Below, piece by piece: positions 21,624-62,807 of a DNA stretch of 64,000 nucleotides; within the stretch, counting starts at the first letter, position 1, and every line of letters starts with the position of its first letter. Origin of the DNA: Spirochaetales bacterium (GTDB lineage: Bacteria > Spirochaetota > Spirochaetia > SZUA-6 > JAFGRV01); NCBI GenBank assembly GCA_016935735.1, contig JAFGQK010000174.1, forward strand, positions 10,386 to 74,385, written 5' to 3'. The notes beneath the pieces are model-generated. The model was not told the origin of the DNA. It was given only the letters and a program-made list of their open reading frames with translations, and made no database searches. A program made the translations under genes and the position numbers.

Positions 21624-21767
21624 GCTATTTTGACTTAAAATCTTGTTAAAATAACAAGATTTCAAGCAAAATAGATAAACGTTGGCCGCCAGGTTAATGA
21701 GACCAGCATAATTAAAAGAATCTGGATAGCTTGTTAATTGGGTTGTGGGCTTAAGCCTTCGTTATGG
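21624..21767 (+). repeat. Copy C of the conserved intergenic element family (degenerate palindrome plus core).
   Basis: 'ctattttgacttaaaatcttgttaaaataacaagatttcaagcaaaatag' is followed by 'ataaACGTTGGCCGCCAGGTTAatg...atCTGGATAgc...ttgTGGGCTTAAGCCttCGTTATGg'. It is about 85% identical to the copy at 30532-30674. Confidence 0.6.
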
Positions 21768-21795
21768 CATATACCCAGAAAAAGGGAGGAAAGAT

Positions 21796-35680: not shown

Positions 35681-37177
35681 ATGAAAAGTTTAAGTTTAAA
35701 ATTAAGTGTCTTATATATATTTCTCGCTATCCTTAATATCTCGTTTTTTACTATTATTATATTTGAAAACCAGATCGATCTGATAACAGAAACATCAAAA
35801 TATCAAACTATTGATTTTGCAAATAAAATCTACTACCAATTCGAAGATCTGAAACAGGAAATAAGTGAAAGGGAAGAACCCCTCACAGAAGAAAAACTTT
35901 ATATCGATATCCGTAATGCCCTGGAAGATATTCTTTATGAGTATATTATATTCAATCAATCAGGATTGGTTCTCTATCAATCAAGTCCGGCATTCTCACT
36001 CAAAGACAAGTACAGAACAAATGGCCAGAAGGCACTGACAAAGAGCGATTTCCTGGGAGAACCTTATACCTTTGATGTTGATGAGGAAGCCCGGGAGATA
36101 CTTTTCTATATCCCGATAAACTTCCCGATACAGAACATTGAACAACTGGTACTTCTTTTTAAACTCGGGATGAAGGATATTGATAAAAAACTCACTACCC
36201 TTTACTCCCTGGTTATTGTCATTATCGTGACTATTGCCCTTTTTCATATTATCTTTGGTTTTTTCCTTCACAGGATTGTGATATCACCAATAAAGACCCT
36301 GGCCTACACAAGTACCGAGATAAGCAAAGGGGATTTATCTGCCAGGGTAAAACTCAGGAAAAAGGATGAAATAGGCCGGCTTGGTGTTGCATTCAACAAT
36401 ATGGCAGATTCTGTGCAGGAGACCATTACAAAACTCGATGAACAAAACAAGCTTATGCGCTTTGAACTTGCCATGGCGAGTGCCGTTCAAAAATCCATTT
36501 ATCCTGCTATCCGTAAAACAAAGTACTTTGATGTTGCAATTTATCACAGACCATATATGGAAGTAAGCGGGGATTATCATAACATCTATCACCTGGGAGG
36601 GAACAAATACGGGATTCTCATTGCAGATGTTGCAGGTCATGGTGTTGCCGCTGCCCTTATTACCATGCTTATAAAGGAAAGGTTCGAAGAACTTGCAGGA
36701 AAATTTGCAGATCCGAAGGAACTCCTCCAGCGGATCAATATAATATTCAAAGATTTAATGGTCGACTATGAGAAATATTTTACGGCGTTTTATCTGATTA
36801 TCAATAAAAATACCCAGGCGCTTTTCTCCAATGCCGCACACCCGAAGGCAATTCTCCTCAGGGAAAGCAATGTGTATCATCTTTCTGTAAAAGGGATACT
36901 GATAGGAGTTTCCCAGATGATGGAGGACGCATTTGAAACAAAACGAATCGCTTTAAAAACGGGGGATAAAATTATTCTTTATTCAGACGGGATAACAGAA
37001 GCGATGAATACACGGAATGAAGAATACGGGATAAAGCGGCTTACCCTGGTATCACAGAAAAATGCCCCGAAAACATGCGATGAGATAGTAAAAGCAATCA
37101 CCGCCCACTTCCACGACTTTACACAGGGAGCAAAACAGTCGGATGATGAAACCCTTCTGGTAATCGAGATTAGGTAA
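35681..37177 (+). CDS. Membrane-anchored HAMP-domain PP2C/SpoIIE-family serine phosphatase (RsbU-like).
   Basis: The N-terminal TM region is followed by a HAMP domain ('IKTLAYTSTEISKGDLSARVKL...LGVAFNNMADSV') and a PP2C domain ('EVSGDYHNI...ADVAGHGVAAAL'). Confidence 0.8.
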   Translation: MKSLSLKLSVLYIFLAILNISFFTIIIFENQIDLITETSKYQTIDFANKIYYQFEDLKQEISEREEPLTEEKLYIDIRNALEDILYEYIIFNQSGLVLYQSSPAFSLKDKYRTNGQKALTKSDFLGEPYTFDVDEEAREILFYIPINFPIQNIEQLVLLFKLGMKDIDKKLTTLYSLVIVIIVTIALFHIIFGFFLHRIVISPIKTLAYTSTEISKGDLSARVKLRKKDEIGRLGVAFNNMADSVQETITKLDEQNKLMRFELAMASAVQKSIYPAIRKTKYFDVAIYHRPYMEVSGDYHNIYHLGGNKYGILIADVAGHGVAAALITMLIKERFEELAGKFADPKELLQRINIIFKDLMVDYEKYFTAFYLIINKNTQALFSNAAHPKAILLRESNVYHLSVKGILIGVSQMMEDAFETKRIALKTGDKIILYSDGITEAMNTRNEEYGIKRLTLVSQKNAPKTCDEIVKAITAHFHDFTQGAKQSDDETLLVIEIR

Positions 37178-40974: not shown

Positions 40975-41316
40975 ATGAATGAAATAACGCTTGATATTAA
41001 AAGTAACCTTGGACAACGTTTAAAGAGAATCAGGAAACCGGAAAAACGGTGTCTTCTTTTTAAAAATAATATAATCCCTGCAGCAACGAAAATCACGATC
41101 GGCAGGGATAAAATGAATAATATTGTTATTTATGACAATATGATTTCACGTTTTCATGCAGTAATTCAAAAGATCAACCAGGCCTATTTTATTAAAGACC
41201 TTAACAGTACAAACGGGACATCGGTAAATGGGAAAATGGTGCCGGGGGGAAAGTACATACGCTTATATCCGAATGATATCATTCAATTAGGAAGAACCGA
41301 TTTATCGTTTATTTAA
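40975..41316 (+). CDS. Small FHA-domain protein.
   Basis: 'ITIGRDKMNNIVIYDNMISRFHAVIQ...LNSTNGTSVNGKMV...IIQLG' is an FHA signature. Confidence 0.7.
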   Translation: MNEITLDIKSNLGQRLKRIRKPEKRCLLFKNNIIPAATKITIGRDKMNNIVIYDNMISRFHAVIQKINQAYFIKDLNSTNGTSVNGKMVPGGKYIRLYPNDIIQLGRTDLSFI

Positions 41317-43082: not shown

Positions 43083-44999
43083 GTGAGGACAAATAATATG
43101 GAAATGACGGTACTTTCTTTATTCAGGGAAAAGGTAAAACAATTCCGTGATATCGCAGCTCTTTACTACAAGGATAAAGATAACCAGTTTCAGCCCGTTT
43201 CTTTTACAGAGCTTTTCAATCTTGCAGGTCAATTCGGGACAGGACTTACGGCAATTGGTATTAAGCGGGGGGATCACATTGGCATTATATCCAATAACAG
43301 AAAGGAATGGATGATATCCAGTTTCGGCATTATGGGTATAGGCGCTCTTGATGTTCCAAGGGGATCTGACTCAACGGCAGCCGAAATAAAATATATTCTT
43401 GGTCATGCAGAATGCCCGGTCTGTATTGTCGAAGACAAAGATCAACTGGAAAAGGTATTATCCGTAAAAAAGGGGCTTTTGAAACTTGCTTCTTTTATTG
43501 TCCTGGACGAAGACTATAAAAAGGCATCGAAGAAAGAAGGTGGTGTGGAAGTTTTTACTTTTTTGGAAATACTGGAAAAGGGGAAAACCATACTGGAAAA
43601 GGATCCGGATTTTTTCAATAAAGAAATAGACATGGGAAAAGCAGACGATCTTGCCACCATTATTTATACCTCCGGTACAACCGGTGAACCCAAGGGAGTG
43701 ATGCTTACCCATGATAATTTCCTTCATCAAATACGGGCACCACTGGCTCATCTGGATGTGAGAGTAAATGATTTTTTTCTTTCTGTTCTTCCCATATGGC
43801 ATGTTTTTGAGCGTTCGGCAGAATATGTCGGTCTTTTTGCCGGTTGTTCCATTATTTATTCAAAACTTATAGGAAAAGTAATTCTTGCAGATATGGAAAC
43901 CATGAAACCGACCATCTTTCCCTCCGTACCCAGGATCTGGGAATCGGTCAGGGCGGGAATATATAAAAAAGTGAATTCCGAAGGCGGGATAAAAAAAACC
44001 CTTTTTCACTTTTTTGTATCGGTTGGCACCATTCATGTTTATTTCCTTAATATGATGAGGGGATTACTCCCGGAATTCAAAAAACGCATCCGTTTATTTG
44101 ATATCGTTATAAGCCTTTTTCCCCTTCTTGTCTTTACCCCCTTAAAACTTCTCGGCGATCTCCTGGTCTTCGGACAAATAAAGAAAAAACTTGGGGGCAG
44201 ATTCAAATTCGGTATATCCGGTGCCGGGGCCCTTCCCCCGCACATTGACAAATTCTTTGCTGCTGCGGGTATCCATCTTTTTGAAGGATATGGGCTTACC
44301 GAAGCTGCACCAATTGTTTCGGTAAGAAAACAAAAAACTCCTGTAACAGGTACGATCGGGCCGCCCCTCCCGGAAATTTCAGTAAAGATATGCGATCCGG
44401 AAGGAAATGAATTACCTCCCGGGAAAAAGGGAATACTTTTTATTAAAGGACCGAATGTAATGCAAGGGTATTATAAAAAACCCGAGGAAACAAAGAAAGT
44501 CCTTTCAGACGATGGATGGCTTAATACCGGGGACCTCGCTATGGCCACCTATAATGGAGAGCTTAGAATAATGGGACGGGTAAAAGAGACGATTGTACTT
44601 CTGGGTGGCGAAAATGTTGAACCCGGTCCCATTGAGGATACCATACTGCAATCCCCATATATAGACCAGGTGATGGTCGTTGGCCAGGATCAGAAATATC
44701 TTGGAGTGCTGGTAATACCGAATTTCGAGAACCTTGAAATTTATGCGAGAAAGAACGGCTTGTACTACCCCAAATCCGAAGATCTTACTGATCTGCCGGA
44801 AATTGAAGCCTTAATTAAAGACGAAATCAACTCAAAAGTAAATATAAAAAAGGGGTTCAAAGCATTTGAAAGAATCTTTAAATTGACCCTATTAAAGGTC
44901 CCTTTTGAAGCAGGTAGAGAACTTACCAATACACTTAAACTTAAAAGAGATGTTATAAATAATATGTATAAGAAAGAGATTGAAGAGCTTTTTTCATAA
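43083..44999 (+). CDS. Long-chain fatty-acid--CoA ligase (AMP-dependent synthetase/ligase).
   Basis: The AMP-binding motif 'IYTSGTTGEPKGVMLTH' and the later 'GYGLTE' and 'TGDL' motifs are present. Confidence 0.85.
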   Translation: MRTNNMEMTVLSLFREKVKQFRDIAALYYKDKDNQFQPVSFTELFNLAGQFGTGLTAIGIKRGDHIGIISNNRKEWMISSFGIMGIGALDVPRGSDSTAAEIKYILGHAECPVCIVEDKDQLEKVLSVKKGLLKLASFIVLDEDYKKASKKEGGVEVFTFLEILEKGKTILEKDPDFFNKEIDMGKADDLATIIYTSGTTGEPKGVMLTHDNFLHQIRAPLAHLDVRVNDFFLSVLPIWHVFERSAEYVGLFAGCSIIYSKLIGKVILADMETMKPTIFPSVPRIWESVRAGIYKKVNSEGGIKKTLFHFFVSVGTIHVYFLNMMRGLLPEFKKRIRLFDIVISLFPLLVFTPLKLLGDLLVFGQIKKKLGGRFKFGISGAGALPPHIDKFFAAAGIHLFEGYGLTEAAPIVSVRKQKTPVTGTIGPPLPEISVKICDPEGNELPPGKKGILFIKGPNVMQGYYKKPEETKKVLSDDGWLNTGDLAMATYNGELRIMGRVKETIVLLGGENVEPGPIEDTILQSPYIDQVMVVGQDQKYLGVLVIPNFENLEIYARKNGLYYPKSEDLTDLPEIEALIKDEINSKVNIKKGFKAFERIFKLTLLKVPFEAGRELTNTLKLKRDVINNMYKKEIEELFS

Positions 45000-45031: not shown

Positions 45032-45262
45032 CTAAAAACCTTTTGAAATGCCTCCCCTGCGCTGTTTTTTCATTTGTTTCCGTTTAAGCGCCTGCCTTCT
45101 TCTGCTTCTGATCTTGGATGGTTTTTCGTAGTATTCACGCTTTTTCCATTCGCGGATAATACCTTCTTTTTCAACCTGTCTTTTAAAACGTTTAATCGCT
45201 TTTTCCAGTTCCTCTTCCGTATTAACAATAACGTAAGCGATATGAATCACCTCCTTTCGCAC
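45032..45262 (-). CDS. rpsU: 30S ribosomal protein S21.
   Basis: '[46 protein letters not shown]' matches the S21 pattern (RFKR..EK.G...E..RE.YEKP). Confidence 0.7.
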
Positions 45263-45424
45263 GATCTTACATGTTTAGACTTTATAATACCAGGAAACAG
45301 GGATGTATGTCAAGATTAAATTTTAACAGGGTATTATTTTATCCCGGTTTTTTTAAAATAACTTTTATAGATACAAATATCCGGGTCTTGCATCATTACT
45401 CTTTATATATTACTCTCACACAAG

Positions 45425-46222
45425 ATGAAAAAGCTTATAATAAATCCGGAATTCGGGATGGCGGGAGACATGCTTTCTGCAGCCCTGATTTCTGCCGGTG
45501 TACCGGAATCACCGCTTATAGAGGTAATGAAAAGCGCTGCCTCTCTTCTCGGTTTTTGTAAAATCAATGTAAAAAGAGAGCAAAGGGGAAAAGCAACAGG
45601 AGTGTCTCTACGTATTTCACTGGATGAACATATTCATGGAATTGAAATTCCTCGGGCACGTGAGTACTTAAAAAAAACATTTCTTGATTACGGCATTAAA
45701 GGAGAATATAAGGATTTTGCTTACCGGGCACTTACTATCCTGGGGCAGGCAGAACAAAAAGTCCATGCAGAAAAAGCCATGGGAGTACATCACCATCATA
45801 CACCCCATCTTCATGAAGCCCAGGATATTATTATTGATCTTGCAGGAGCTGCATTCGGTTTGCAGGAACTGGACATACATGTATCATCAGTTTTATGCCT
45901 TTCACCTGTTTGTGTTGGCGGGGGTAAAATAACCTTTTCTCACGGAACACTGGATATACCTGCACCTGCAACAGCACAGATCATAGAGGACTATGCTATT
46001 CCTTTTAAAAAAGGCCCCGTGGAATATGAGCTTTTTACTCCTACCGGGGCAGCAATTCTCGCTGCCCTGAAACCGGAATATGTAAAGCGGGATACCTATC
46101 GAAATACCCTTTCCGGTCAGGAAATAATAGCCGGGACAGGATTCGGGAGTCTTAATATATCCGGGGAGGAGACGGGGGGACCGAATGCCCTCTACATTTT
46201 TCTTATGGACACCCGGGTATGA
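45425..46222 (+). CDS. LarC N-terminal domain (DUF111, nickel-pincer cofactor nickel-insertion protein family). The LarC C-terminal domain is absent.
   Basis: 'GMAGDMLSAAL', 'ILGQAEQKVH', 'HLHE', 'DIIIDLAG', 'GKITFSHGTLDIPAPATAQI' and 'TPTGAAILAAL' match the LarC1 region. The protein is 265 aa, whereas full LarC is about 400 aa or more. Confidence 0.65.
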   Translation: MKKLIINPEFGMAGDMLSAALISAGVPESPLIEVMKSAASLLGFCKINVKREQRGKATGVSLRISLDEHIHGIEIPRAREYLKKTFLDYGIKGEYKDFAYRALTILGQAEQKVHAEKAMGVHHHHTPHLHEAQDIIIDLAGAAFGLQELDIHVSSVLCLSPVCVGGGKITFSHGTLDIPAPATAQIIEDYAIPFKKGPVEYELFTPTGAAILAALKPEYVKRDTYRNTLSGQEIIAGTGFGSLNISGEETGGPNALYIFLMDTRV

Positions 46223-46944
46223 ACAGATTACCACTTCTTTTTCTCGATTTTGATGGTGTCATCTGTGATTCTCTTGATGAATGCATCGCAAGCTCACTTT
46301 ATGCCTATTTCAATCTGTTATTGAATAAGGGAATAACAAGCCTTCCCATTGATTATAAAAAACGGTTTGCATTACTCCGGCCATATGTCCGGAATGGCGA
46401 GGATTATCTTGTTATTCAGCAGATACTCAAGGATAACATTCATATAAAAGATCAAATACATTTTGACGATATCCTTTTAAAATACAGAGACAAAATGGCA
46501 TTTTATAAGGAGCTTTTTTATAAAGCAAGAAGCCTTTTTATTGAAAAAGATCCCGGTTTCTGGTTCAGCCTTAACAGGATATACCCTCATATACTCCATT
46601 CCCTTTCAAAAGCCTCCGCATCACCTTATTGTTTTATACTCTCGACAAAACGATCCGATTTTATTCATACCATTCTTAAACAAAACAGGATAAGTATGCC
46701 GGAAGATCATATCCTTGTTGCATGGAACATAAAAAAACTCGATCTTATTTCATCTCTTCTTGATAAAGGAAACTATCCTGCTGCTCTTTTTGTCGATGAC
46801 CAGATCGATCATCTTAAAAAAAACAACGATGTAAGGATTACCACTTACCTGGCGAAATGGGGCTATATTCAAAAGGAGTGGCTTGACCGGGAAGTAAAGA
46901 CAATAGATGAAGAAGAGATGGCGGAAATCATGATGAGGTATTGA
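46219..46944 (+). CDS. HAD-superfamily hydrolase.
   Basis: Motif I is 'LFLDFDGVICDS'. The start overlaps the stop of the LarC-N gene by 4 nt. Confidence 0.5.
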   Translation: MNRLPLLFLDFDGVICDSLDECIASSLYAYFNLLLNKGITSLPIDYKKRFALLRPYVRNGEDYLVIQQILKDNIHIKDQIHFDDILLKYRDKMAFYKELFYKARSLFIEKDPGFWFSLNRIYPHILHSLSKASASPYCFILSTKRSDFIHTILKQNRISMPEDHILVAWNIKKLDLISSLLDKGNYPAALFVDDQIDHLKKNNDVRITTYLAKWGYIQKEWLDREVKTIDEEEMAEIMMRY

Positions 46945-46962
46945 AAGATACCTTGTATAAAG

Positions 46963-48210
46963 CTATATTATATGATGTTTTTTCCCGACTTCCTCGAGGA
47001 CGTCCAGGGCCTTATCCAGGCAGGATTTTGTCAGGGTGGACATAAGACTCAGGCGGATACGTGCCTGACCTTGCGGGACAGCCGGATAAAAAACAGAATT
47101 AAGGAAAATTTCTTTTTCATGAATTTCTGTTGCCATTTTTCGTAATGTAATTTCCTCCCCGACATGAATGGGTATTATTGCCGAATGTGATTGACCAATA
47201 TTGAAACCGAGTGATGTGAGATTTTCCTTCATATAATTGATATTCTTCCAGAGGTTCTCCCGTAATTGGGGTTCCTTTTCCAGGATATCGATGGCCTTTG
47301 AAACACAGGCAGCAATGACCGGGGAAAGCGAAGCGGAAAAGAAATAAGACCGTGAATAAAAACGGAGGTAATTTATCACTTCTTTTGTCGAGCAAATAAA
47401 TCCGCCCATCGCCCCGAGGGTCTTGCTGAAAGTACCCATCACGATATCTATTTTTCCTTCCAGGTCAAAGTACTCAATAGTACCACGCCCGCGTTTACCC
47501 AGGATACCGGTTGCATGTGCCTCATCGACCATAAGCCGGGCATTATACACATCGGTCAAATTTTTTATTTTATCAAGGAGTGAAAGATCGCCATCCATAC
47601 TATACACTCCTTCCACAACAACCAGTTTTCCCTTATCTCTCGTGTTTTTTAATATGCTTTCCAGTTTGTTTGTATTATTATGCCCAAAACTCCTGAATTG
47701 TGCACCGGAAAAAAGCGCACCGTCTATTATACTCGCATGATTGAACCGGTCCGAAATAACAACATCATCTTTCCTTAAAAGTGCTGTAATTACCCCGATA
47801 TTGGTGGAAAAACCTGTCGGGAAAACCATCGCATCCTCGCAGGATTTATATGCAGCGAGTTTCTCTTCCAGTTCCCTGTGAAGTGCGGAATATCCGCAAA
47901 GAAGAGGGGAGCCGCCCAACCCCGGACCATACTGACCCAGCGCTTCCTGTCCTGCTTTTATTACTTCCGGGTGTGAAGACAACCCCAGGTAATTATTTGA
48001 AGCGAGCATAATCATTTTTTTCTTTTTCCCGGTGTACCTGTCCAGGATTGTCACCTCCGGATTACAGGAGGTAAGAAGGGTGCGAAAATAAGTAAAATAT
48101 TTCTTTGCTATATAATCTTCTGCATATTCATAAAAAAAATGTGCCTTTTTAAAAATATCAGGATCATTATACTCTATAAAATCGACCAGTGAATAGTTAT
48201 CCGAATCCAT
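46963..48210 (-). CDS. PLP-dependent alpha-oxoamine synthase family acyltransferase (BioF/Kbl/serine palmitoyltransferase-like).
   Basis: The PLP-lysine motif is 'GTFSKTLGAMGGF'. The protein is 415 aa with a fold-type I aminotransferase pattern. Confidence 0.75.
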   Translation of the reverse strand: MDSDNYSLVDFIEYNDPDIFKKAHFFYEYAEDYIAKKYFTYFRTLLTSCNPEVTILDRYTGKKKKMIMLASNNYLGLSSHPEVIKAGQEALGQYGPGLGGSPLLCGYSALHRELEEKLAAYKSCEDAMVFPTGFSTNIGVITALLRKDDVVISDRFNHASIIDGALFSGAQFRSFGHNNTNKLESILKNTRDKGKLVVVEGVYSMDGDLSLLDKIKNLTDVYNARLMVDEAHATGILGKRGRGTIEYFDLEGKIDIVMGTFSKTLGAMGGFICSTKEVINYLRFYSRSYFFSASLSPVIAACVSKAIDILEKEPQLRENLWKNINYMKENLTSLGFNIGQSHSAIIPIHVGEEITLRKMATEIHEKEIFLNSVFYPAVPQGQARIRLSLMSTLTKSCLDKALDVLEEVGKKHHII

Positions 48211-48294
48211 AATTTACCATCTTCCTTTCATCACCTGTTTATAGTATCCGTCTTTCGATTTATTACCCTTTTCCGGGCTTTGAGGATAGTGCTG

Positions 48295-48660
48295 TTAACA
48301 GAACCAGCCATAAATATGGTTCAGATTAAAAAATTCCTCTAACCGTTCTTTATCTGTATTGTTGATTTTAGCCGTGTCTATCTGTATCCCCATGCCGCCG
48401 ATTGCAGTATCATCAGGAATGACATTTCTCACCTCTCCTTCCAGGTGGAGGGGTAATTTTTCTTCCGGAAGATACACATCGATGTAGACCTGTGTACTTA
48501 CCGGGAAAACGAATTCTGTCTCGACATAAAGCCCGGTGCGTGAAAAATTGGTAACAATACCATCTTTCTGCCGGTCATCCGATTTTAGTTTTCTGAAAGA
48601 TGCGGTAACAGCAGTCCGTATACGCGGATCTTTCCTGCTCTTAAACACATTATTTTCCAT
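48295..48660 (-). CDS. PilZ-domain protein (putative c-di-GMP receptor).
   Basis: 'RKDPRIRTAV' (an RxxxR-like motif) and 'TNFSRTGLYVET' (D/NxSxxG-like) are present in a 121-aa protein. Confidence 0.45.
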   Translation of the reverse strand: MENNVFKSRKDPRIRTAVTASFRKLKSDDRQKDGIVTNFSRTGLYVETEFVFPVSTQVYIDVYLPEEKLPLHLEGEVRNVIPDDTAIGGMGIQIDTAKINNTDKERLEEFFNLNHIYGWFC

Positions 48661-48670
48661 ATCCCTCCTT

Positions 48671-50020
48671 TTAGCTTCCGATTGAAAATGGATGATTTCC
48701 CTTTTTGTTCACTACAAACCAGGTATAAAAAGAGAAAAAAAGCTCTTCATGAAAGAGATCCCTGGGAAAGAATTTTATATATTCCCGCTTGAAATTCCAC
48801 AACCGTCCGAAACTGGCCTTTAAACTGTAGAACTTGCGGTAGGCTTCCCAGTAACTATTCATAAGTTCTTCCGGGGTTATTTTTTCCGGCTGGATAGTAA
48901 CATGAACACCATCATAGTGAGACCAATCATAATCCATTATCCTGCCTGCTTTTTCCATATCCTCCCGGAGTTTTGTGCCCGGAAAGGGAGTGATAAGAAA
49001 AATAAAAAGGTAGTTGATATCCCATTCTAAAATCGTATCGATCGTTCGTTTAAGAGTATCCACCGTATCATTATCAAGTCCAAACATCATGGAAACCTGG
49101 GCAAGGATGCCCACGTCTTTAAGCATTTTGAAGAGATTTTTATATTCTTCCACTTTATTAAAACTTTTATTTACATTACTCAAGTTAACAGGATCAATTG
49201 ACTCGATGCCCATGAAATTCTCATGGCACCCTGCTTTTGCCGCCAATTCAATCATGTCCGGGTATTTTCCTATACCTGTACTCATCTGGCAGGCCCACCG
49301 TTTTTTCAGGGGAATCAGTGCTTTCATCAATTCCCTGGCATAGCCGGGATCTGCAAAAACATTATCATCAACAAAAAGAAATCTGGAAGGATCATTACTT
49401 ATAATCTCATTAATAACAGACGCAATAGGTTTTTTTCTTATTATACGGCCCATAAATTTATGAACAACGCAGAAAGAACAATTATGGGGACAACCTCTTG
49501 TGGTCTGAATCGGAAGGATGGGCGTTTTCGCAAAGGGCGCGATAACATAGTTTTTATAGTTCAATTTATGAAAGCATGGTATAACCGGATTGGAAAGATC
49601 GGTGAAATCTTTTGATTGATATTTCCTTTTTAATTTCTTTTTTTCCGCATCCCGGAGTATATCCTCCCAGATATTTTCCGCTTCACCAATTGCAACAGCA
49701 TCAAAATGCTTGAGGGCTTCATCCGGACACATGGAAGCATGAACCCCGCCTATGATGGTCTGGATTCCTCTTTCCCGAAATTCATCTCCAATTCTATACG
49801 CACCAGTGGCCTGGCTTGTCTGACTGGTCACTGCTACCAGATCCACCTGTTCATTAAAGTCAATATCTTCCACGAATCCTTCCGTAATTCGGAGGTCTAC
49901 ATCTGAAGGGGTTAATCCGGCCAGGGTTGGGAGTGTTAAAGTAGGAAGAAAAAGCTTTTTATACCTGATAAATTCACCATTATTTCCCAGTTGTGGAGCC
50001 TGTATTAATCGAACCTTCAT
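48671..50020 (-). CDS. B12-binding-domain radical SAM enzyme.
   Basis: The CxxxCxxC motif is 'GCPHNCSFC'. An N-terminal cobalamin-binding-like Rossmann region ('DLVAVTSQTSQ...IIGGVHAS') is present. Confidence 0.8.
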   Translation of the reverse strand: MKVRLIQAPQLGNNGEFIRYKKLFLPTLTLPTLAGLTPSDVDLRITEGFVEDIDFNEQVDLVAVTSQTSQATGAYRIGDEFRERGIQTIIGGVHASMCPDEALKHFDAVAIGEAENIWEDILRDAEKKKLKRKYQSKDFTDLSNPVIPCFHKLNYKNYVIAPFAKTPILPIQTTRGCPHNCSFCVVHKFMGRIIRKKPIASVINEIISNDPSRFLFVDDNVFADPGYARELMKALIPLKKRWACQMSTGIGKYPDMIELAAKAGCHENFMGIESIDPVNLSNVNKSFNKVEEYKNLFKMLKDVGILAQVSMMFGLDNDTVDTLKRTIDTILEWDINYLFIFLITPFPGTKLREDMEKAGRIMDYDWSHYDGVHVTIQPEKITPEELMNSYWEAYRKFYSLKASFGRLWNFKREYIKFFPRDLFHEELFFSFYTWFVVNKKGNHPFSIGS

Positions 50021-50315
50021 AGTTTCCTTTCCGTAAAAAAATTGATATTGGGCCTCCCCTGAAATAATCCAGTACTAATAAAAGTATAATAAATAAGAAA
50101 ATAATTCGCAAATAAATTTCTCCGGGAGAGTGAACAAACCCTGTTTTATAAAAAAAAATATTACTTCATTTGCTTTTTACCTCCAAAATTCATTATTATT
50201 TACAATGATAATTAGTTTTAAAGGCCAAAAGAGATTGTATTATTAAAGTGAGAAGGCCGAAATTGTTACTGGTTTTGAAAATATAAGAATATCTGAAATA
50301 GAATTTTGAAGAGTT

Positions 50316-52730
50316 GTGACGACAATGAAGAATATAGATTTTACTAAAATTGATAAAAAGAAAGCCGAACTCTCGGTCGGATTAATTAAGCCTTTCTTAC
50401 TCTACCTGGAATATAAATATAACCGTAAATTTCTCGAAGAATTTATTGCTGAAACGGATATGGATCTGGAATTTCTGGAAAATAGCGGCAACTGGATATC
50501 TTTTGAATATTATACAAAGTTTTTAGAGAAAATAGTACAATTTACCGGGAGTCAACGGGTTTTCAATGAAGCTGCCAAATATATCCTCACAGGGAAAACA
50601 TTTGGTCTGCTTTCTCCTCTTCTTATTGTGACCAAATTTTTCGGGCACCCGGGTATGGCATATAAACAATTGGGAAAAATAGGAGGGGCGATAAATAACG
50701 TTGGGAAATACAGTGTATTATTATTATCAAAGCGTAAGGTCCTTGTTAAATGCACCACCTTCCCCGGTTATAAACAGACCAAGTATAATTGTAATACAAT
50801 GAAAAGCTTTTTTTCCGTTGTTCCCTGTTTCTGGAATCTCCCGGCTGCAAAAGTAAGAGAACTCCAGTGTGCAGTGCGCAGCGGTGATACATGTGTTTAT
50901 GAGATAAGCTGGATTCCAAGGCCGATAAGCACATTTCTCTTTGCATTTATAAGCAGTTTTGTTCTTGCAGCAGAGATTGTGTATTTCTTTTTACAGAAAA
51001 ACAATTTATTTAAGCTGGATTATATTTTTTTTACGGTATTCGGACTTTTTATCTACTATCTCTTGAGGCGGATTTTCCATTACAAAAATATGATAAAAGA
51101 AATACAGGAGGTCCAGGAATTAAGGACCACGGATCTGGAGAGAGCGATAGCAAACAGCAAAAGAGAATACATGGAACTCCGGGAAGCAAATGTACAGATT
51201 ATTGAGAAAGCAAATAAACTCTCTATCCTGAATTATATCTCTGAAGAAATCAGTAAAATAGATTCAGAGGAAGAACTCCTTTTTCTTATCATTAAAATAC
51301 TTATTGATTGTATAGGTTTTGAACGTGGATACTTTTTCTGTTTTAACTCCAACTTTACTTTAGTGGATGAACCAGGGTTTTTTGATAAAGTAACGCATAA
51401 AAAGCAAAAAAAACCGGATCTGGGGACAAACTTGAAAAACCATTCAGTGATTCAGAGTATTTTTACGGATAGAAGACCCCAGGTATTGAGTTCTTCACGG
51501 ATTTTTGAAAATGAAGGAAAAAACGATGAAATTCTCGTGATTCCGCTTTCCATTCATAAAATCTTTTTTTACCTTGTTATTTTTGATAATGCATCCTCGG
51601 GGCAGAATATAAAAGAAAAGAATCTGCAATTCTTTGCTACCGTTGGAAGACAGCTGGAAATTGCTTTGAATAATATCTATGCTACCAAAGCAGCACACAA
51701 TGTTCTTTCAAGCATTCCCTCCACCATTGTCGTATTTGACAGGAATTCATTAAAGATTTCCTATGTGAATACTGCTTACTTAAGACGTTTCCAGGTAACA
51801 AAGAAACAGGTTTTGGGTGAAAATGTTCTTTCAGTCCTGGAAATACCGGAACATTATAAGGAAAAATTCCTATCCCAGGTTGAAAATATCCAGATGATCG
51901 ATTTTATTCACGATCAAGAGTTCCAGACCGGTCTAAGGATTATCGGTTATACAATCTTCAAAATGCCGGAGGGTATCGGGGGAAAAAATGAAATCGGTAT
52001 TATTATGAAGGATATAACCAAGCAGAAGGATTTACAGGAACAACTTATAAGGGGGGAAAAACTGGCTGCATTGGGCACTCTTGCATCGGGGATAGCACAT
52101 GAGATAAACAATCCGCTTTATGGTATTCTTGGTACAGCAGAGGTCATTGTTGATGAATCGAAATCCGAAGAGGTAAAGGATCTGGCAAAGGAGATTATCG
52201 ATTTTACGATGCAGTGTTCAGATATTGTGAAAGATCTTTCTGCATACTCCCGGAGTCTGCGGGAGGAAAAGAAAATGGAAATAGATGTTAATAATATTCT
52301 TGACGAGACAATAAGGATTATCAGATATAGTCCCCAATTCATTAATATAGAAATAAAGAAAGAATTTGATAATATCCCTGTGCTTTATGCACTGGGCGGT
52401 GAGATACGCCAGATATTTATGAATATCATCAACAATGCAATCCAGGCTATGCAGGGAAGAGGAAAACTTGTTATTAGTACACATTTTGTCGATGGTTTTA
52501 TTCAAATCCTGATTAAAGATACAGGTCCGGGAATTCCCAGGAATCTGCTTTCAAAGATATTTGATCCTTTTTTTACTACCAAAGCAACAGGAGAAGGAAC
52601 AGGAATAGGGTTGAATATTGTTTACAGGCTTGTAACGAAATACAATGGGTTTATATCGGTAAACAGTGAAAAAGGGGAAGGTGCGGAATTTATTATAAAA
52701 TTTCCGGCAAAGGTAAAAGAGCCGGCATAA
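50316..52730 (+). CDS. Multidomain sensor histidine kinase (N-terminal unknown sensor domain, two TM helices, GAF-like, PAS, HisKA, HATPase_c).
   Basis: The H-box 'HEINNPLYGILG', 'NIINNAIQA', 'DTGPGI' and 'GTGIGLNIVYRLV' are present, with hydrophobic helices near residues 205-245. Confidence 0.85.
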   Translation: MTTMKNIDFTKIDKKKAELSVGLIKPFLLYLEYKYNRKFLEEFIAETDMDLEFLENSGNWISFEYYTKFLEKIVQFTGSQRVFNEAAKYILTGKTFGLLSPLLIVTKFFGHPGMAYKQLGKIGGAINNVGKYSVLLLSKRKVLVKCTTFPGYKQTKYNCNTMKSFFSVVPCFWNLPAAKVRELQCAVRSGDTCVYEISWIPRPISTFLFAFISSFVLAAEIVYFFLQKNNLFKLDYIFFTVFGLFIYYLLRRIFHYKNMIKEIQEVQELRTTDLERAIANSKREYMELREANVQIIEKANKLSILNYISEEISKIDSEEELLFLIIKILIDCIGFERGYFFCFNSNFTLVDEPGFFDKVTHKKQKKPDLGTNLKNHSVIQSIFTDRRPQVLSSSRIFENEGKNDEILVIPLSIHKIFFYLVIFDNASSGQNIKEKNLQFFATVGRQLEIALNNIYATKAAHNVLSSIPSTIVVFDRNSLKISYVNTAYLRRFQVTKKQVLGENVLSVLEIPEHYKEKFLSQVENIQMIDFIHDQEFQTGLRIIGYTIFKMPEGIGGKNEIGIIMKDITKQKDLQEQLIRGEKLAALGTLASGIAHEINNPLYGILGTAEVIVDESKSEEVKDLAKEIIDFTMQCSDIVKDLSAYSRSLREEKKMEIDVNNILDETIRIIRYSPQFINIEIKKEFDNIPVLYALGGEIRQIFMNIINNAIQAMQGRGKLVISTHFVDGFIQILIKDTGPGIPRNLLSKIFDPFFTTKATGEGTGIGLNIVYRLVTKYNGFISVNSEKGEGAEFIIKFPAKVKEPA

Positions 52731-52766: not shown

Positions 52767-53135
52767 ATGAAAAATTTGCTTATAATTGACGATGACGAGC
52801 GAATCAGAAAAATAATGAGGATTCAATTGCATACTGAATATAATGTGTACGATGCAGAAAAAAAGGATATTGCATTCCAAATTCTTACAACTGTTCCTGT
52901 TGATGTTATTATATGTGATATAAAAATGAAGGATTCGAATGGATTTGTAATCCTGAAAGAGTTAAAGGAAAAATATCCCGATATTCCGGTTATTATGCTT
53001 ACCGGTTTTATTGATAAGAGTATGTCTGATAAAGCAAAGAAAATGGGATGTTTTGATTTTATTACAAAACCGGTAAGAAGAGAAAAGTTGAAAATGACGA
53101 TAAACAAAGCCTTGCAGAAGGAAATGTTGCATTAA
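52767..53135 (+). CDS. Single-domain response regulator (CheY-like receiver).
   Basis: The receiver fold is recognisable, and Asp is in 'VIICDIKMKDSNG'. Confidence 0.75.
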   Translation: MKNLLIIDDDERIRKIMRIQLHTEYNVYDAEKKDIAFQILTTVPVDVIICDIKMKDSNGFVILKELKEKYPDIPVIMLTGFIDKSMSDKAKKMGCFDFITKPVRREKLKMTINKALQKEMLH

Positions 53136-53156: not shown

Positions 53157-53582
53157 ATGGCTGATTCAGACAGGTATGATTTTTTTGAAGAACCGCCTTT
53201 GCATGTGCCCGGACCGGAAACAAAAAAGGTACTTGTCATCGATGATATTACGTATGTCGTCAGGTCAATTTCACGTATATTGCGTTCCCAGGGCTATTAT
53301 GTAATTACTGCCATGACAGGAAAAGAGGCTTTAAGTAAATTTGAAAAATATAGACCGGATCTCCTGACCGTCGATCAGAAACTCCCTGATATGTCGGGGC
53401 TCCAACTCGTTGAAAAAATAAGAAAGCTCTTCGGGGGTGAAAGAGTGAAGGTTATTTTTATTTCTGCGGTTCAGGAAAAAGAGGAGATCAGAGCGATTCT
53501 TAATTCCGGTATTGATAATTACCTGCTGAAACCCTTTAAAAAGGAAATCCTTCTTACCGCAGTAAGAAAATTAATAGGGTAA
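53157..53582 (+). CDS. Single-domain response regulator with a short N-terminal extension.
   Basis: 'VLVIDDITYVVRSI...LLTVDQKLPDMSG' is a receiver domain. Confidence 0.7.
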   Translation: MADSDRYDFFEEPPLHVPGPETKKVLVIDDITYVVRSISRILRSQGYYVITAMTGKEALSKFEKYRPDLLTVDQKLPDMSGLQLVEKIRKLFGGERVKVIFISAVQEKEEIRAILNSGIDNYLLKPFKKEILLTAVRKLIG

Positions 53583-53776: not shown

Positions 53777-55918
53777 ATGAAGGACAAAGCAGGAGTCTGT
53801 ATGAAAAAACATACCCTAAATCACACACCATTTATTTTGTTCACAATTATATTTATCTTTTCCGGGTGCATGACAGTCCGGGATCCTTTATTTCTGCAAA
53901 AATCCAGAGAAAACAGGAAGGACGGTAAAACCACTACCTATTTTAAAGAACACCCGGTATTACATTCCATTTATGAACTCCATGAAATAGATGAATTACC
54001 CGGTGTTGCAGGGCAAAAATTCGTAACACTCTATCTCCTTACTCTAAAAGAAGAATACCTGCCCATAGGAAACATGACCTTTTGTACCAGGTTTTTCTAC
54101 GATTATTTTACGGAAATCGGATACAGCGAACTTCTCGATAAAATAAAACAGACAGAAGGAAAAAACATGGTGGAAAAGGCCATGAACTATGCAGAAGAAA
54201 CCGGCGAAATTATGGTACTCCTGTCCGGGTATGAAGCGCAGAAACTGGCAAATAAAGGCAGGGATGTGGGGGTGCTGGGAGAATACTATTATGATAAAGC
54301 AGAACAAAAGTACACTGTCCATTACAGTGTTGTCCAGGCATCTAATATCGCATTTGACGAAGAAGGAAATATGGTCCCCTATTGGGTAACAGGTCTTATT
54401 ACAAAACGGAAAGATGCAAACGACCGGTATGGGACAGGCACTTTTCTTGCCCAGGCAGGGATTGCCAATGGACTTATTGATTTTCGCTGGGCATATAATA
54501 CAAAGCTGAACGGTATTATACAGAAGGACAGCAAGGGAAACTTCCGTGGCGGTATTATTTTTATCGTATTCCCGGAAAAAAAGATACCCATACTGGGGCT
54601 TCCCGGCATACCTGTATATTCCCTTACTGTTATGACTGAACCAGCAGAAGCCCTGGTTTATATTGATGGGGTATACAGGGGAACAGGTCCCTGTACAGTC
54701 CAGTTATTAAGAAAAGGAAAGCGTACAGTGGCGGTGACATATCCCGGGTATAAAGAAAAGCTAAAAGAGATTATCCTGGGAGAAATGAAAAAACCTACTT
54801 TATATATAAAACTCGAAGAACAGAAGGGGAGTATCCATATCACAACAGAACCGGAAAAAGCGAAAGTATTTATAAGCGGAAAAGAAGCAGGAACAACTCC
54901 CTGCGATATCCCCGGCCTGCCGGTCGGGGAGTATAAGATAAGCATTCAGCTTCCCGGGTATGTGAGTGTAGGTAAAATCGTGAACGTGGAACAGGATATG
55001 AAAACTGATGTACATTGCATACTGGATAAATATGAAATGATTATGGTAAAAGGCGGGAATTTCCAGCAGGGCGGTAACGGGATTTTGCCTGCCCGTACTG
55101 TTCATGTTGATGATTTCTATATTAATAAGTATGAAATAACTTATGAGCAATATGAATCCTTCTGTACTGATACCGGAAAATTAATGCCCGGTACAGGTGA
55201 ATGGGGAAACCGGAGCAGACCTGTTACCGGTGTAGATTGGTATGATGCAGTCGAGTATTGTAACTGGCTCAGTCTTAAAGAAAACCTGACACCTTGTTAT
55301 GAAATAAAGAAAAATGAACCGGATCCGGATAATAAAAATGCCAATGATACAAAGAAATGGACTGTCACGGCGGTAAAAGATGCAAATGGATACCGGCTCC
55401 CGACAGAAGCAGAATGGGAATATGCTGCAAAAGGCGGGGCTGCGGGCAAGGGATATTTATATGCCGGGAGTAATGAGATCGATCCGGTTGCCTGGTATAA
55501 CGGCAATTCCGGGAAAAAGATTCAACCGGTTGGACAGAAGCAGCCGAACGAGCTTGGACTTTATGATATGAGCGGAAATGTATGGGAATGGTGCGGGGAT
55601 TGGTATGAGGAGATGTATTCTGAACAGTCTTCAGGGGAAAGTAAGTCTGAAGTTTCAAGGGAAAGTCAGTCTGAAGTTCCAGGGGAAAAGCAAGCGGGAA
55701 CCCCGGGAGAAAATCAATCCGGGAACCTGGTAGAAAACCCGTCCGGTCCCGGGGAAGGGACATACCGTGTCCGAAAAGGCGGATCGGCATTCAATACGGA
55801 TGATGAAAACGGGTATCTCCGGGTTTCATCCAGGAATTACCTGGAACCGGATCGCGGGAATGGCTATACTGGATTCAGGGTTGTGCGGCGGATTGATGCG
55901 AAGAAAGCGGATGGGTAA
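53777..55918 (+). CDS. Lipoprotein with two PEGA domains and a C-terminal formylglycine-generating-enzyme (FGE/SUMF1) family domain.
   Basis: The lipobox 'FIFSGC' is present; the likely start is MKKHTL at about 53801. PEGA-like 'VYIDGVYRGTGPCTV' and 'VFISGKEAGTTPCDI' are followed by an FGE-like 'MIMVKGGNFQQGG...RVRKGGSAFN...GYTGFRVVRR'. A Ser/Glu-rich insert is 'SGESKSEVSRESQSEVPGEKQ'. Confidence 0.7.
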   Translation: MKDKAGVCMKKHTLNHTPFILFTIIFIFSGCMTVRDPLFLQKSRENRKDGKTTTYFKEHPVLHSIYELHEIDELPGVAGQKFVTLYLLTLKEEYLPIGNMTFCTRFFYDYFTEIGYSELLDKIKQTEGKNMVEKAMNYAEETGEIMVLLSGYEAQKLANKGRDVGVLGEYYYDKAEQKYTVHYSVVQASNIAFDEEGNMVPYWVTGLITKRKDANDRYGTGTFLAQAGIANGLIDFRWAYNTKLNGIIQKDSKGNFRGGIIFIVFPEKKIPILGLPGIPVYSLTVMTEPAEALVYIDGVYRGTGPCTVQLLRKGKRTVAVTYPGYKEKLKEIILGEMKKPTLYIKLEEQKGSIHITTEPEKAKVFISGKEAGTTPCDIPGLPVGEYKISIQLPGYVSVGKIVNVEQDMKTDVHCILDKYEMIMVKGGNFQQGGNGILPARTVHVDDFYINKYEITYEQYESFCTDTGKLMPGTGEWGNRSRPVTGVDWYDAVEYCNWLSLKENLTPCYEIKKNEPDPDNKNANDTKKWTVTAVKDANGYRLPTEAEWEYAAKGGAAGKGYLYAGSNEIDPVAWYNGNSGKKIQPVGQKQPNELGLYDMSGNVWEWCGDWYEEMYSEQSSGESKSEVSRESQSEVPGEKQAGTPGENQSGNLVENPSGPGEGTYRVRKGGSAFNTDDENGYLRVSSRNYLEPDRGNGYTGFRVVRRIDAKKADG

Positions 55919-57435: not shown

Positions 57436-60400
57436 TTATTCCAGCATGCAGGGACATACATCAAAACCGTGGAATGAATCATCATCATCCAGAAAACCCT
57501 GTTCGATCGCATCATCAACTTCCCGGCTTGTATAGGGTATTCCCGTTTGTTCGACACTGTGCTGGCTTAATTCCCGTGCCCGGTACCACCCCGTTTTATG
57601 GCAGACTTCCCAGCCAAGTATGTTCAGACAAATTTTGTCTCTCTGGATAACATCCAGATCCAGTTTCCCGTACGCATCGTTAAAAATGAGCGGGTTTATG
57701 TAAAAGCCCGGCGCCATGCTGTAGATCATATCCGCTTTGCCTGTAGCAGTTATATCGAGATGCCCGCGGTATTCTTTTCCTATGCCGAATGGCCAGGTAA
57801 ACGGGAAATACACACTTATGTCCGCATCAAATAGCCTTTCATCATGCCTGATCGATAGATCCAGATGCGTATGAACCGGATAAACGCCTATTTCCCCATT
57901 GGAAAGAATGATCCGGCTTCTTAAGGAAAGGTTGAACGGGATAATAAAATTCTGGGGATGCAATTCAAAATTGAACCGGGTATAGACGATCGGGAAGAAA
58001 ATATAATGCAGGAAATTCGCCCCGATGAGTACATGCCCCTGCACATCACTTGAATGGGTGGAAATCCCGATTCTGCTGTGACAGGTAAGGGAAAAATCGA
58101 CCTTTCCTTCTATGTTTAGCGGATTTCCCGGTTCCGAAGGAGTATCATACACAAAATATTCACATTCGTCAAAGCAGGCATGTATACTCAGATCCTTTGC
58201 AGTAACATGAACGGTATCGTTTATCGAGTATCGCAAGAATCCCAGGGCAAAGACACTCGCTATCCCGCAGAAATTCTTACGGATAAAGAACCAGTCGCCG
58301 AATCTGAACTTGTCCATCTCATTTTCCTTTTTCGAGAAATAATCGGTAAGTGAAGTATCCAGGGCATGTTCTATCGTTATCTGCTCGTTCAATGTTTCAT
58401 CAATCCCTTCGATAAGGTCCTGCCACATGCCATTCAGGATTGAGGTATATTGCGTGCCGCCGTCCAGAACCGGGATAACGCCGTCCGCACTCGCTGTTTT
58501 GCGGAGCGTATCTATCGTACTCACCTGGATATACCCTTTTCCGTTCGGAAGATTATACAACCCACCTATGACAGGAACATTTCCCATATCCACGCCCGTT
58601 GTTAGATCGTTAAGCGATTCATCTGCACTTATCGATACGATCTTGTAGGTAAGATTCCTTTTTTCATCCAATACCGGGATAATTCCCGGGGGCATCAAAA
58701 AGGCTTTTCGTATAACCCTGCTGTGGGAAACCAGGAGCTCCTCTGTATCAAGCTCATTCATATAGATTCGTTTAAAGGAATTATCCGTTAACGAGACGAA
58801 GTTTGCCCAGGGAAACTCGGTTTTCCCGAGATCCGGGGGAAGCTTTTTGACATGGAAGTCGTAGTTTTTGCTGTCCAGAATGATACCGTTTTCACCATAG
58901 GCGAGTATTTTCACGGAACTATTCTCTGTGGTCAGCAATCCCATATCCACGATAGAAAAGAACCCGTTTTCCGGGGTATCATCGATAAATATCTTATCCG
59001 GGGTGTGATATTCGACCCTGGCAAACGGCCCTGCGGTTTGAACATGGATGACATTCAGCAGACTTACCTTTTCGATGTATACATTTTCATCTGCAAGCAG
59101 CGAGTTCACACCGGTAATCTGGCCTGTCTGGAATACCAGTTTATGAAAATTATCCCCCGTATATTCTCCCGTAAGCCGCCCATCCGGGTCGACCGTCAAA
59201 AGAAAGGTATCCCCGAAATGCGCTGTGATGCCGGTAATTGTGATACCGGCCTTTTCATTTATTTTCATACCGGAAATTTCCCGTACCCGGGTATGCATGT
59301 TCCCGTCCGGCGTTATGTGATCGAACCTGACCGGTATTCGTTCATCGAGGTCAAGATGCCCGGTATTACGCAATGAAAGAAAAACGGTTACATCATAAAG
59401 ATCGTCAAAAGCCAGTTCCTCGTACCGGTAATCGATACTCCCCTCATCTGCGGTAATGTTTTTCCTCCCTATCTGGAAATTTACCCATCTGGTAAAATGA
59501 TCGTTATTCCGGTACCCGCTTACGGCAAGCTCCCTGTCGCCGGCATCCACAGTAAGCGGAATTCTTGTACGCGGCGGTTCGGTAACGAGATGCTCGTTCA
59601 TCCCGTCGATCGATCGTGTAACATACTGAAAACTATTGCCGGCATCGTACTCAAAAAGGACAACCGGCGGGGTATCGTACGATACGATCCGGTCTCCCCC
59701 TTCCGGTGAAAGAATTTCAAGGAGAACGACCTGGAAATAGACCCGTTTTGTAATCTTCCTGCCGGTAACATCCTCTGCTTCTATCCTGAACTCATGGCTG
59801 CCGTGAGAAAGGTTGGCAAGCTCCCGGGTCTCTTCATTATCCAGGAACATCCGGATGGTCTTCATCTCCTTATTGAACCTGTATTCGACAGGTATGTCCG
59901 TATACGCATACATGTGCGGTCCCGGTGAAAGAATCTCCAGTCCGGGTTCGATCGTATCGATGGTAAAGGGAACCGATTTACGGATAACATTCCCGCTTAC
60001 CGGGTGAACGGCGGTAAAAAGGATGGTATATTCCCCGTCACCGGGAAGTTCGATGGTTTCACCCGGCAGGATGCCTGTTGTCGTTTCTCCCAATGTATAG
60101 GATACCTCCGCATTTGAAATAAACGATACTTCGATTGTTTTCCCCGGATACACCATTCCGCGGGACGGGGTAAGAACCGACAATGTGGGAAACTTTTCCG
60201 AAACCGAAAATGCCGTTTCTGTCGAGGTTATTACTCCCCTCTCGTCTTCTGCAAAAAGCTCGATGGTGTACTTTCCATCCGGGAGACCGGCAAGGACAGG
60301 ATCATCCAGCGCTTCCCCGTCATCAAGGGTGTACCAGACCCTGCTTAACGGCCGGTTACTCCGGTAATCAAGAGGGATGGTGTTTGTGCCATATTCTTTA

Positions 60401-62790: not shown

Positions 62791-62807
62791 ATATAACCTC
62801 CTTTTTA

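Follow-up and report, generated by a model that had tools for sequence, protein, structure and literature searches.

Bacterial sphingolipid-type lipids and alpha-hydroxyketone signals share a first step, catalysed by an alpha-oxoamine synthase (AOS). In the signalling systems CqsA/CqsS (Vibrio CAI-1) and LqsA/LqsS/LqsR (Legionella LAI-1), the AOS-family gene stands beside genes for a sensor kinase and response regulators, and we know of no radical S-adenosylmethionine (SAM) enzyme or dedicated H-NOX/V4R-type sensor in either kind of pathway. The ceramide pathway of Caulobacter and Bacteroidetes is formed by Spt, bCerS and CerR (PMC11087976, PMC11334938). The locus described here lies in a 64,000-nucleotide stretch (the window; positions are counted from its first nucleotide) of contig JAFGQK010000174.1, which is chromosomal and belongs to a metagenome-assembled genome (MAG) of an uncultured Spirochaetales bacterium, with housekeeping surroundings (valyl-tRNA synthetase, PolA, isopropylmalate dehydrogenase and glycosyltransferases). 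Its genes for a radical SAM enzyme, a PilZ protein, an AOS and a divergently encoded sensor kinase are the smallest form seen so far of an uncharacterized cassette in which a condensing enzyme of the serine palmitoyltransferase (SPT) type is combined with a radical SAM enzyme and its own sensor kinase. Literature searches for combinations of these components found none, and a search linking radical SAM enzymes with bacterial ceramide or sphingolipid found no paper.

Operon organization and conservation across phyla

Three minus-strand genes occupy positions 46963–50020 of the window. The first encodes a radical SAM enzyme of 449 residues with an N-terminal B12-binding-like Rossmann domain (48671–50020), the second a stand-alone PilZ protein of 121 residues (48295–48660; Pfam PilZ) and the third an SPT-like AOS of 415 residues (46963–48210; Pfam Aminotran_1_2 and NCBIfam). 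These open reading frames (ORFs), their spacing and their domain assignments are exactly those given in the first-pass annotation of this DNA: 10 nucleotides (48661–48670) separate the radical SAM gene from the PilZ gene, and 84 nucleotides (48211–48294) separate the latter from the AOS gene. An AGGAGG Shine–Dalgarno sequence precedes the PilZ start codon in the region of the 10-nucleotide gap, and a terminator scan found no terminator-like site in either minus-strand gap. The short gaps, the Shine–Dalgarno sequence and the absence of terminators fit a single transcript, and the three genes form a genuine operon. Rfam returned no match, either for the whole window at the gathering threshold or for positions 46800–50500 at E ≤ 1, and thus no cobalamin or cyclic di-GMP (c-di-GMP) riboswitch.

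The pairing of radical SAM enzyme and AOS extends well beyond this genome. A scan for the radical SAM enzyme with one genome per species gave 80 loci, all from MAGs, which were analysed by tblastn and by clustering of the ORFs within 8 kb of the radical SAM gene. An orthologous AOS (44–83% identity to that of the window) is encoded 1.3–5.6 kb away in 10 of the 11 distinct loci with a radical SAM orthologue of at least 52% identity, the exception being the lineage of L007 and L008, and in 0 of the approximately 65 loci whose homologue is less than 45% identical; the linkage therefore exceeds chance. The loci with both genes come from the spirochaete lineage (the window and L006), Omnitrophota (L009), Planctomycetia (L010 and L011), Lentisphaerae (L012), Victivallales (L013), Spartobacteria (L014) and Verrucomicrobiota (L015 and L003), so that the cassette is found in Spirochaetota, Omnitrophota, Planctomycetota and Verrucomicrobiota/Lentisphaerae. 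The first-pass annotation had taken the three genes of the window as a functional unit, and both the operon spacing and the conserved synteny support this.

In the loci of the Planctomycetes–Verrucomicrobia–Chlamydiae (PVC) group, the gene order is FadL-type channel, AOS, radical SAM enzyme, a FemAB_like/Acetyltransf_6 protein of the GNAT family (~375 residues), histidine kinase and response regulator, with a second radical SAM paralogue added at some loci. The FadL-type channel occurs at six PVC loci. ORF clustering places the GNAT gene in L003 and L009–L014, and it is also present on the spirochaete-lineage contigs L090 and L099; against NCBIfam, the protein gave a weak match only, to the PEP-CTERM FemAB model. 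In the spirochaete lineage the operon follows the order radical SAM–(GNAT)–(ATC_hydrolase)–PilZ–AOS, of which the window has the most reduced form. The ATC_hydrolase gene recurs in this lineage and is missing from the window; members of this family (PF14196) are encoded immediately upstream of the PilZ gene at L006 (8419–8901), L097 (142–618) and L099 (866–1339).

More distant homologues of the radical SAM enzyme have other contexts. Six Bacteroidales MAGs (L065, L068, L075, L077, L080 and L088) harbour a parallel four-gene set, at about −2.7 to +3.5 kb around the homologue, in the order AMP-binding ligase (~454 residues), AOS-like pyridoxal 5′-phosphate (PLP) enzyme (~400 residues), radical SAM homologue and 7TMR-DISM hybrid histidine kinase. 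With 23–26% identity between the AOS-like enzymes and the window AOS, and 35–37% for the radical SAM homologues, this set shows a recurrence of the theme and is not evidence that the ligase gene of the window, discussed below, belongs to the cassette. In four Desulfobacterota-type MAGs (L019, L022, L031 and L037), homologues of 39–40% identity lie amid beta-ketoacyl synthases, together with a class I SAM methyltransferase, a conserved 263-residue protein without a Pfam match and, at some loci, kinases; for the wider radical SAM family, such surroundings resemble those of fatty-acid or polyketide-like genes. In the one orthologous lineage that has neither an AOS nor the kinase, L007 and L008, the radical SAM gene lies beside a gene for a 1,180-residue protein with BNR/YCF48 repeats and a KAP-NTPase domain (L007, 5840–9379) and near TRAP-transporter, KduI and SDR genes.

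The alpha-oxoamine synthase

The AOS scores 188 bits against Pfam Aminotran_1_2, is assigned by NCBIfam to the alpha-oxoamine synthase group, and carries the PLP lysine K263 together with H158, D229 and H232. It stays below every curated family cut-off in NCBIfam: Kbl, 397 bits against a cut-off of 460; SPT of the CFB type, 393 against 640; BioF, 382 against 426; CqsA/LqsA type, 227 against 428; and the beta- and alpha-proteobacterial SPT models, 328 against 500 and 264 against 670, so that all three SPT cut-offs are missed. Among sequences of solved structures, the highest score is obtained with Sphingobacterium multivorum SPT (SmSPT; 297.5 bits), followed by Escherichia coli KBL (287.5), BioF (222), Sphingomonas paucimobilis SPT (218) and CqsA (126). 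In a small neighbour-joining tree, which holds three reference sequences only, the AOSs linked to the radical SAM gene, PVC orthologues included, form one clade that is sister to SmSPT; identities of this clade are 38–44% to SmSPT, 34–37% to Kbl and 30–33% to BioF.

With the roles of the catalytic and substrate-pocket residues of SmSPT taken from PMC10196870, the window AOS is identical to it at N52, Y54, G80, S81, H138, S185, D210, H213, T241, S243, K244, S273 and A274 (SmSPT numbering). The whole AOS clade keeps every catalytic residue. Kbl and BioF diverge at positions 243 and 274: the AOS clade and SPT have the motifs T-F-S-K and F-S-A, whereas the corresponding motifs are T-L-G-K and F-S-N in Kbl and T-F-G-K and Y-S-T in BioF. 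Moreover, E. coli BioA, BioB, BioC and BioD gave no tblastn match in the 64-kb window, and no tdh homologue is present there either. The earlier description of this acyltransferase as SPT-like is thus borne out, over BioF or Kbl, by the motifs, the position of the clade and the absence of the bio and tdh genes, and the enzyme is best placed, on sequence grounds, in an SPT-like clade outside every curated family whose nearest relative is the Bacteroidetes-type SPT.

An SPT-type AOS lacking bio or tdh neighbours makes a lipid-like, possibly sphingoid, product reasonable. Of the sphingoid-type pathway proposed in the first-pass annotation, the SPT-like active site stands, whereas the AOS missed all three curated SPT models and no CerR-type reductase was seen: neither bCerS nor CerR is encoded in the window, no reductase is conserved among the related loci, and no homologue of an acyl carrier protein (ACP) or of the acyl-ACP synthetase AasR was seen.

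The radical SAM enzyme

The radical SAM enzyme scores 54.3 bits against Pfam Radical_SAM and, marginally, 34.4 bits against the B12-binding family (PF02310), for which the gathering score is 32.1. Its cluster-binding motif CxxxCxxC (C177, C181 and C184) is invariant in the alignment of homologues, of which 3,536 were found, from uncultured organisms wherever an organism is named. Pfam and NCBIfam scans detected no SPASM or RiPP-recognition domain (RiPP, ribosomally synthesized and post-translationally modified peptide). Scores are far below the cut-offs of all NCBIfam equivalogs, among them BchE (104 bits against 481), HpnJ (102 against 578), the ladderane family rSAM_ladder_B12 (80 against 360) and HpnR (55 against 650).

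In the AlphaFold2 model (mean predicted local distance difference test score 93.4), the best structural match is AprD4 (6fd2; template modelling score 0.74), followed by the cobalamin-dependent methylases MgmA, CysS, TsrM and TokK, and by OxsB. AprD4 is a cobalamin-free diol dehydratase, whose equivalent domain is not known to hold the cofactor. Because the nearest structure is cobalamin-free, methylation is no safe assumption for this enzyme. The step from a B12-binding radical SAM domain to lipid methylation or rearrangement, taken in the first-pass annotation, is accordingly not established.

The PilZ protein

The PilZ protein (37.9 bits against Pfam PilZ; gathering score 22.5) has both c-di-GMP-binding motifs, RxxxR (R9-K-D-P-R13) and [D/N]xSxxG (N38-F-S40-R-T-G43). 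A search of 5.8 billion proteins retrieved six relatives of 55–72% identity, giving a subfamily of seven, and a metagenome scan for close relatives found none. Both motifs are invariant in all seven members. So is the C-terminus, EFF(D/N)LN(H/N)IYGWFC-COOH, which the last 13 codons of the PilZ gene encode (48295–48333 of the window) and which ends in a cysteine; it is the most conserved stretch of the subfamily. To our knowledge, a C-terminal tail of the IYGWFC type is not a feature of PilZ proteins; it may serve for docking or be a site of modification.

All five relatives whose context is visible are encoded in the same type of operon, with the orders radical SAM–ATC_hydrolase–PilZ–AOS (L006), PilZ–AOS (L096), ATC_hydrolase–PilZ–AOS (L097 and L098) and GNAT–ATC_hydrolase–PilZ (L099). 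A further contig, L090, which comes from the same sample as L096, has the kinase divergent from radical SAM–GNAT. Within the lineage, the PilZ protein is thus the dedicated partner that had been proposed. Outside it, Pfam detected no PilZ domain in any of 71 small ORFs close to the radical SAM gene at 15 other loci. Since the PilZ gene is lineage-specific, c-di-GMP control would be an add-on and not part of the core logic of the cassette.

The divergent sensor kinase and its response regulators

A sensor histidine kinase (804-residue ORF, 50316–52730; probable start 50325) is encoded on the plus strand, divergently from the operon, and is followed by genes for two single-domain response regulators of 122 residues (52767–53135; Pfam Response_reg, 87 bits) and 141 residues (53157–53582; 91 bits). 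Orthologues of the 122-residue regulator follow the kinase gene in L006, L009, L010 and L011, and the 141-residue regulator has a counterpart of 86% identity in L006. The first-pass annotation did not mention this set, which is the most constant partner of the cassette.

The kinase comprises an N-terminal domain (residues 4–206), two predicted membrane helices, and PAS, HisKA and HATPase_c domains. No Pfam model matches its first 300 residues, and its N-terminal region is 22–34% identical in the cassette kinases of PVC loci. A hidden Markov model (HMM) of the N-terminal domain matches an ORF within 8 kb of the radical SAM gene in 14 of 85 loci, including all eight orthologous loci with enough flanking sequence; tblastn added L090 to these. 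The domain is also present in signalling proteins beside more distant radical SAM homologues. At L040 (6686–9028), directly beside a radical SAM homologue of 41% identity, it is fused to GAF, PAS and HD-GYP (HD_5) domains, an output of the c-di-GMP phosphodiesterase type; this gene appears to be a second, independent tie of the radical SAM family to c-di-GMP.

Relatives of the N-terminal domain are numerous. Exhaustive phmmer searching recovered 685 cluster representatives, in which the domain is nearly always N-terminal; a word-index homologue search with the same domain had given no match. Among 70 sampled members, HATPase_c is found in 62, Arabinose_bd in 19, V4R in 13 and GGDEF in three. 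In the alignment, W57, C156, C182 and C190 are invariant and E179 is nearly so. Structural modelling predicts that the domain folds as a ligand-binding domain of the H-NOX/V4R type without heme, and a profile of the domain gave only non-significant matches to sequences in the PDB. Neither the proximal heme-ligating histidine nor the YxSxR motif of H-NOX proteins is conserved, and among 22 family members no alignment column has histidine or arginine at 70% or more. Lacking a conserved histidine or arginine, the domain is not a heme H-NOX. We read it as a probable cytoplasmic, membrane-tethered binder of a hydrophobic ligand.

Intergenic region and neighbouring genes

The 295 nucleotides that separate the kinase gene from the operon (50021–50315) contain two blocks, at 50213–50161 and 50120–50075 in the sense of the minus strand, that are conserved in a three-sequence alignment with L006 and L090. 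In the latter block, a promoter scan identified a promoter-like arrangement facing the radical SAM gene, with −35 (TTGCGA) and −10 (TATACT) elements 17 nucleotides apart. The former carries an inverted repeat, ATTAT-N8-ATAAT, followed by TGGAGGTAAAAAGCAAAT. A sigma-54 promoter considered in the conserved intergenic block was dropped, the GG/GC spacing being off by one.

An acyl-CoA ligase (43083–44999; AMP-binding, 278 bits), which the first-pass annotation had included in the pathway, is a real gene; however, it lies on the strand opposite to the AOS gene and two genes away, with a LarC-like gene and a HAD-motif ORF in between. None of these three occurs in any related locus, and all were rejected as members of the cassette. 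In the region 45074–46222, the LarC-like nickel-insertion ORF (265 residues) matches the 375-position Pfam model only up to about position 206 and is preceded by short overlapping ORFs (45074–45561); the gene may be split or frameshifted. Beyond the response regulators, the window encodes a 713-residue protein with PEGA and FGE-sulfatase domains (53777–55918) and, on the minus strand, a 1,798-residue protein with a weak match to a bacterial Ig-like domain (Big_13; 57436–62832). Neither is found after the response regulators of L006, where EF-G and FliG are encoded instead. The window is also rich in signalling genes (21745–23238, 31302–34312, 35681–37177 and 40975–41316), among which are a HAMP-SpoIIE phosphatase gene, a gene for an FHA-domain protein, and genes for two response regulators that depend on sigma-54, one of them accompanied by its own kinase. 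No GGDEF or EAL gene was found among the scanned window ORFs of at least 220 residues.

Discussion

The sequences show the tight operon, the linkage of radical SAM enzyme, AOS and kinase across phyla, the PilZ motifs with their synteny throughout the lineage, and the fold of the kinase domain. The substrate, the product, the radical SAM chemistry, the kinase ligand and the contact of the PilZ protein are inferred. In the reading that we prefer, to which we assign a probability of roughly one half, the AOS and the radical SAM enzyme make a tailored, sphingoid-like amino lipid that is sensed by the kinase, and the PilZ protein couples the module to c-di-GMP. The AOS would use a fatty-acyl thioester and a small amino acid (serine, most likely) in a condensation that gives a sphingoid-type alpha-amino ketone, which the radical SAM enzyme would then tailor, either by dehydration or rearrangement as in AprD4 or, if cobalamin is bound, by C-methylation. 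In relatives of the window, the FemAB-like or BioF2-like GNAT protein would N-acylate the product and the FadL-type channel would take it across the outer membrane. The kinase would bind the hydrophobic product or a precursor through its heme-less H-NOX/V4R-fold domain, with the two single-domain response regulators as its output, and in the spirochaete lineage the PilZ protein would couple this module to c-di-GMP, probably with its invariant tail docked on one of the enzymes. As between an envelope lipid and a diffusible signal, the linkage to a kinase and the FadL channel make us lean towards a molecule that is sensed. A bolder form of the proposal, in which the tailored sphingoid-like amino ketone is itself a lipid-derived signal and the cognate ligand of the previously unrecognized heme-less H-NOX/V4R family, wired to c-di-GMP by a PilZ protein whose tail docks or is modified, seems to us rather unlikely as a whole.

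Several observations weigh against the preferred reading. All loci belong to uncultured organisms. The AOS falls below the curated SPT, BioF, Kbl and CqsA cut-offs, and the tree that places it beside SmSPT holds three reference sequences only. The radical SAM enzyme may not use cobalamin, the score of the B12-binding domain being marginal and the cobalamin-free AprD4 the nearest structure. L007 and L008, whose radical SAM orthologue is 58% identical, have neither an AOS nor the cassette kinase nearby. Neither the FemAB-like GNAT gene nor a FadL gene is present in the 64-kb window, so that part of the pathway may be missing here, or its end product may be a different one. Finally, two-component genes are common neighbours in these genomes, and the kinase might only control operon transcription according to some other stimulus; against such a plain transcriptional role, the response regulators of the cassette have no DNA-binding domain.

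The alternative closest to this reading is quorum sensing in the style of CAI-1 and LAI-1, in which the AOS would be the autoinducer synthase, its product would be tailored by the radical SAM enzyme and passed out by FadL, and the kinase would be the receptor. It overlaps with our reading and differs in positing a secreted signal in place of an envelope lipid. The layout of an AOS gene beside a kinase and response regulators is that of CqsA/CqsS and LqsA/LqsS/LqsR; the ligand-binding-type domain of the kinase travels with the biosynthetic genes across phyla, PVC loci encode a FadL/TodX-type channel for hydrophobic small molecules, and single-domain response regulators are what a relay would be expected to have. 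However, the AOS is much nearer to SPT than to CqsA (297 against 126 bits) and reaches only 227 bits against the cut-off of 428 of the autoinducer synthase model, the sensor domain is cytoplasmic and H-NOX/V4R-like, unlike a multi-pass receptor of the CqsS type, and the presence of a GNAT N-acyltransferase points to a ceramide-like product with two chains, for which diffusion would be poor. We regard quorum sensing as a doubtful explanation.

The reading of the first-pass annotation, a membrane sphingolipid gated by c-di-GMP, with the acyl-CoA ligase feeding SPT and a cobalamin-dependent radical SAM methylase decorating the lipid, we consider decidedly unlikely. It has on its side the SPT-like active-site residues of the AOS, the intact motifs of the PilZ protein and its retention in the operon, the GNAT acyltransferases that accompany the cassette in relatives, and the distant Bacteroidales analogues with an AMP-ligase directly upstream of the AOS-like gene and the radical SAM homologue. 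Yet the ligase gene of the window is separated from the AOS gene by two others, is encoded on the opposite strand and has no counterpart in any related locus, PilZ is absent from 15 related loci outside the lineage, no homologue of CerR, ACP or AasR was seen, the AOS missed the curated SPT cut-offs, the status of the radical SAM enzyme as a methylase is unsupported, and the conserved kinase is left out of account.

A protein or peptide substrate for the radical SAM enzyme, with the PilZ protein and its YGWFC tail as that substrate or as a carrier and the AOS having a separate role, is very improbable. Radical SAM enzymes do frequently modify small proteins encoded alongside them, the PilZ gene begins 10 nucleotides past the radical SAM stop codon, and the tail, with its terminal cysteine, is the most conserved part of PilZ. 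But GNAT and/or ATC_hydrolase genes separate the two genes in relatives, no SPASM or RiPP-recognition domain was found, and the occurrence of the radical SAM–AOS–kinase cassette in four phyla without PilZ rules out PilZ as the ancestral substrate. A chance adjacency of housekeeping genes (a BioF or Kbl enzyme, an orphan radical SAM enzyme and a stray PilZ protein), for which one could cite the Kbl and BioF scores nearly equal to that of SPT, is hardly credible and is already contradicted by synteny kept in four phyla, by the absence of bioA/B/C/D and tdh from the window, by the failure to reach any curated cut-off and by a PilZ subfamily confined to this operon.

If a tailored, sensed amino lipid is indeed made, the biosynthesis of amino lipids would gain a new tailoring chemistry from the cassette, which occurs in four or more phyla whose members are mostly uncultured anaerobes. 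The cassette would likewise supply the first candidate class of ligand for a Pfam-less family of sensor domains with approximately 700 sequence clusters, and a testable lineage-specific case of c-di-GMP acting through a stand-alone PilZ protein on a pair of lipid or signal biosynthetic enzymes. With only three genes in the operon, expression and reconstitution are practical.

Comparison with described systems

With the Spt–bCerS–CerR pathway the cassette shares a soluble AOS whose nearest solved relative is the Sphingobacterium SPT and which has SPT-type active-site residues, as well as, in relatives of the window, the clustering of the AOS with a putative N-acyltransferase. By contrast, the cassette AOS scores below all three SPT cut-offs, no CerR, ACP or acyl-ACP synthetase was seen with it, and sphingolipid loci are not known to have a radical SAM enzyme or a sensor kinase of their own as integral parts. 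Like CqsA/CqsS and LqsA/LqsS/LqsR, the cassette encodes an AOS-family enzyme beside a histidine kinase and response regulators; unlike them, it has an AOS distant from CqsA (126 bits, against 297 for SPT) and a cytoplasmic sensor of the H-NOX/V4R type in place of a polytopic one, and it adds a radical SAM enzyme and the GNAT, FadL and PilZ proteins.

The individual proteins show the same mixture of the familiar and the distinct. The radical SAM enzyme has the Rossmann B12-like domain and the CxxxCxxC TIM barrel of AprD4, MgmA, CysS, TsrM, OxsB, TokK, HpnR, HpnJ and the ladderane family; however, with 55–104 bits against cut-offs of 360–650, it belongs to no curated family. The N-terminal domain of the kinase differs from H-NOX domains and from V4R/XylR-type domains (PoxR, DmpR and Mycobacterium tuberculosis VirS) in having neither the heme histidine nor the YxSxR motif nor a Pfam match, in its fusion to a membrane hairpin and a kinase, and in its tie to a radical SAM cassette. 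The PilZ protein resembles single-domain receptors of the PA4608 or YcgR C-domain type in its Pfam assignment and in both c-di-GMP motifs at the usual spacing, and is set apart from them as part of a seven-member, operon-confined subfamily with an invariant IYGWFC tail.

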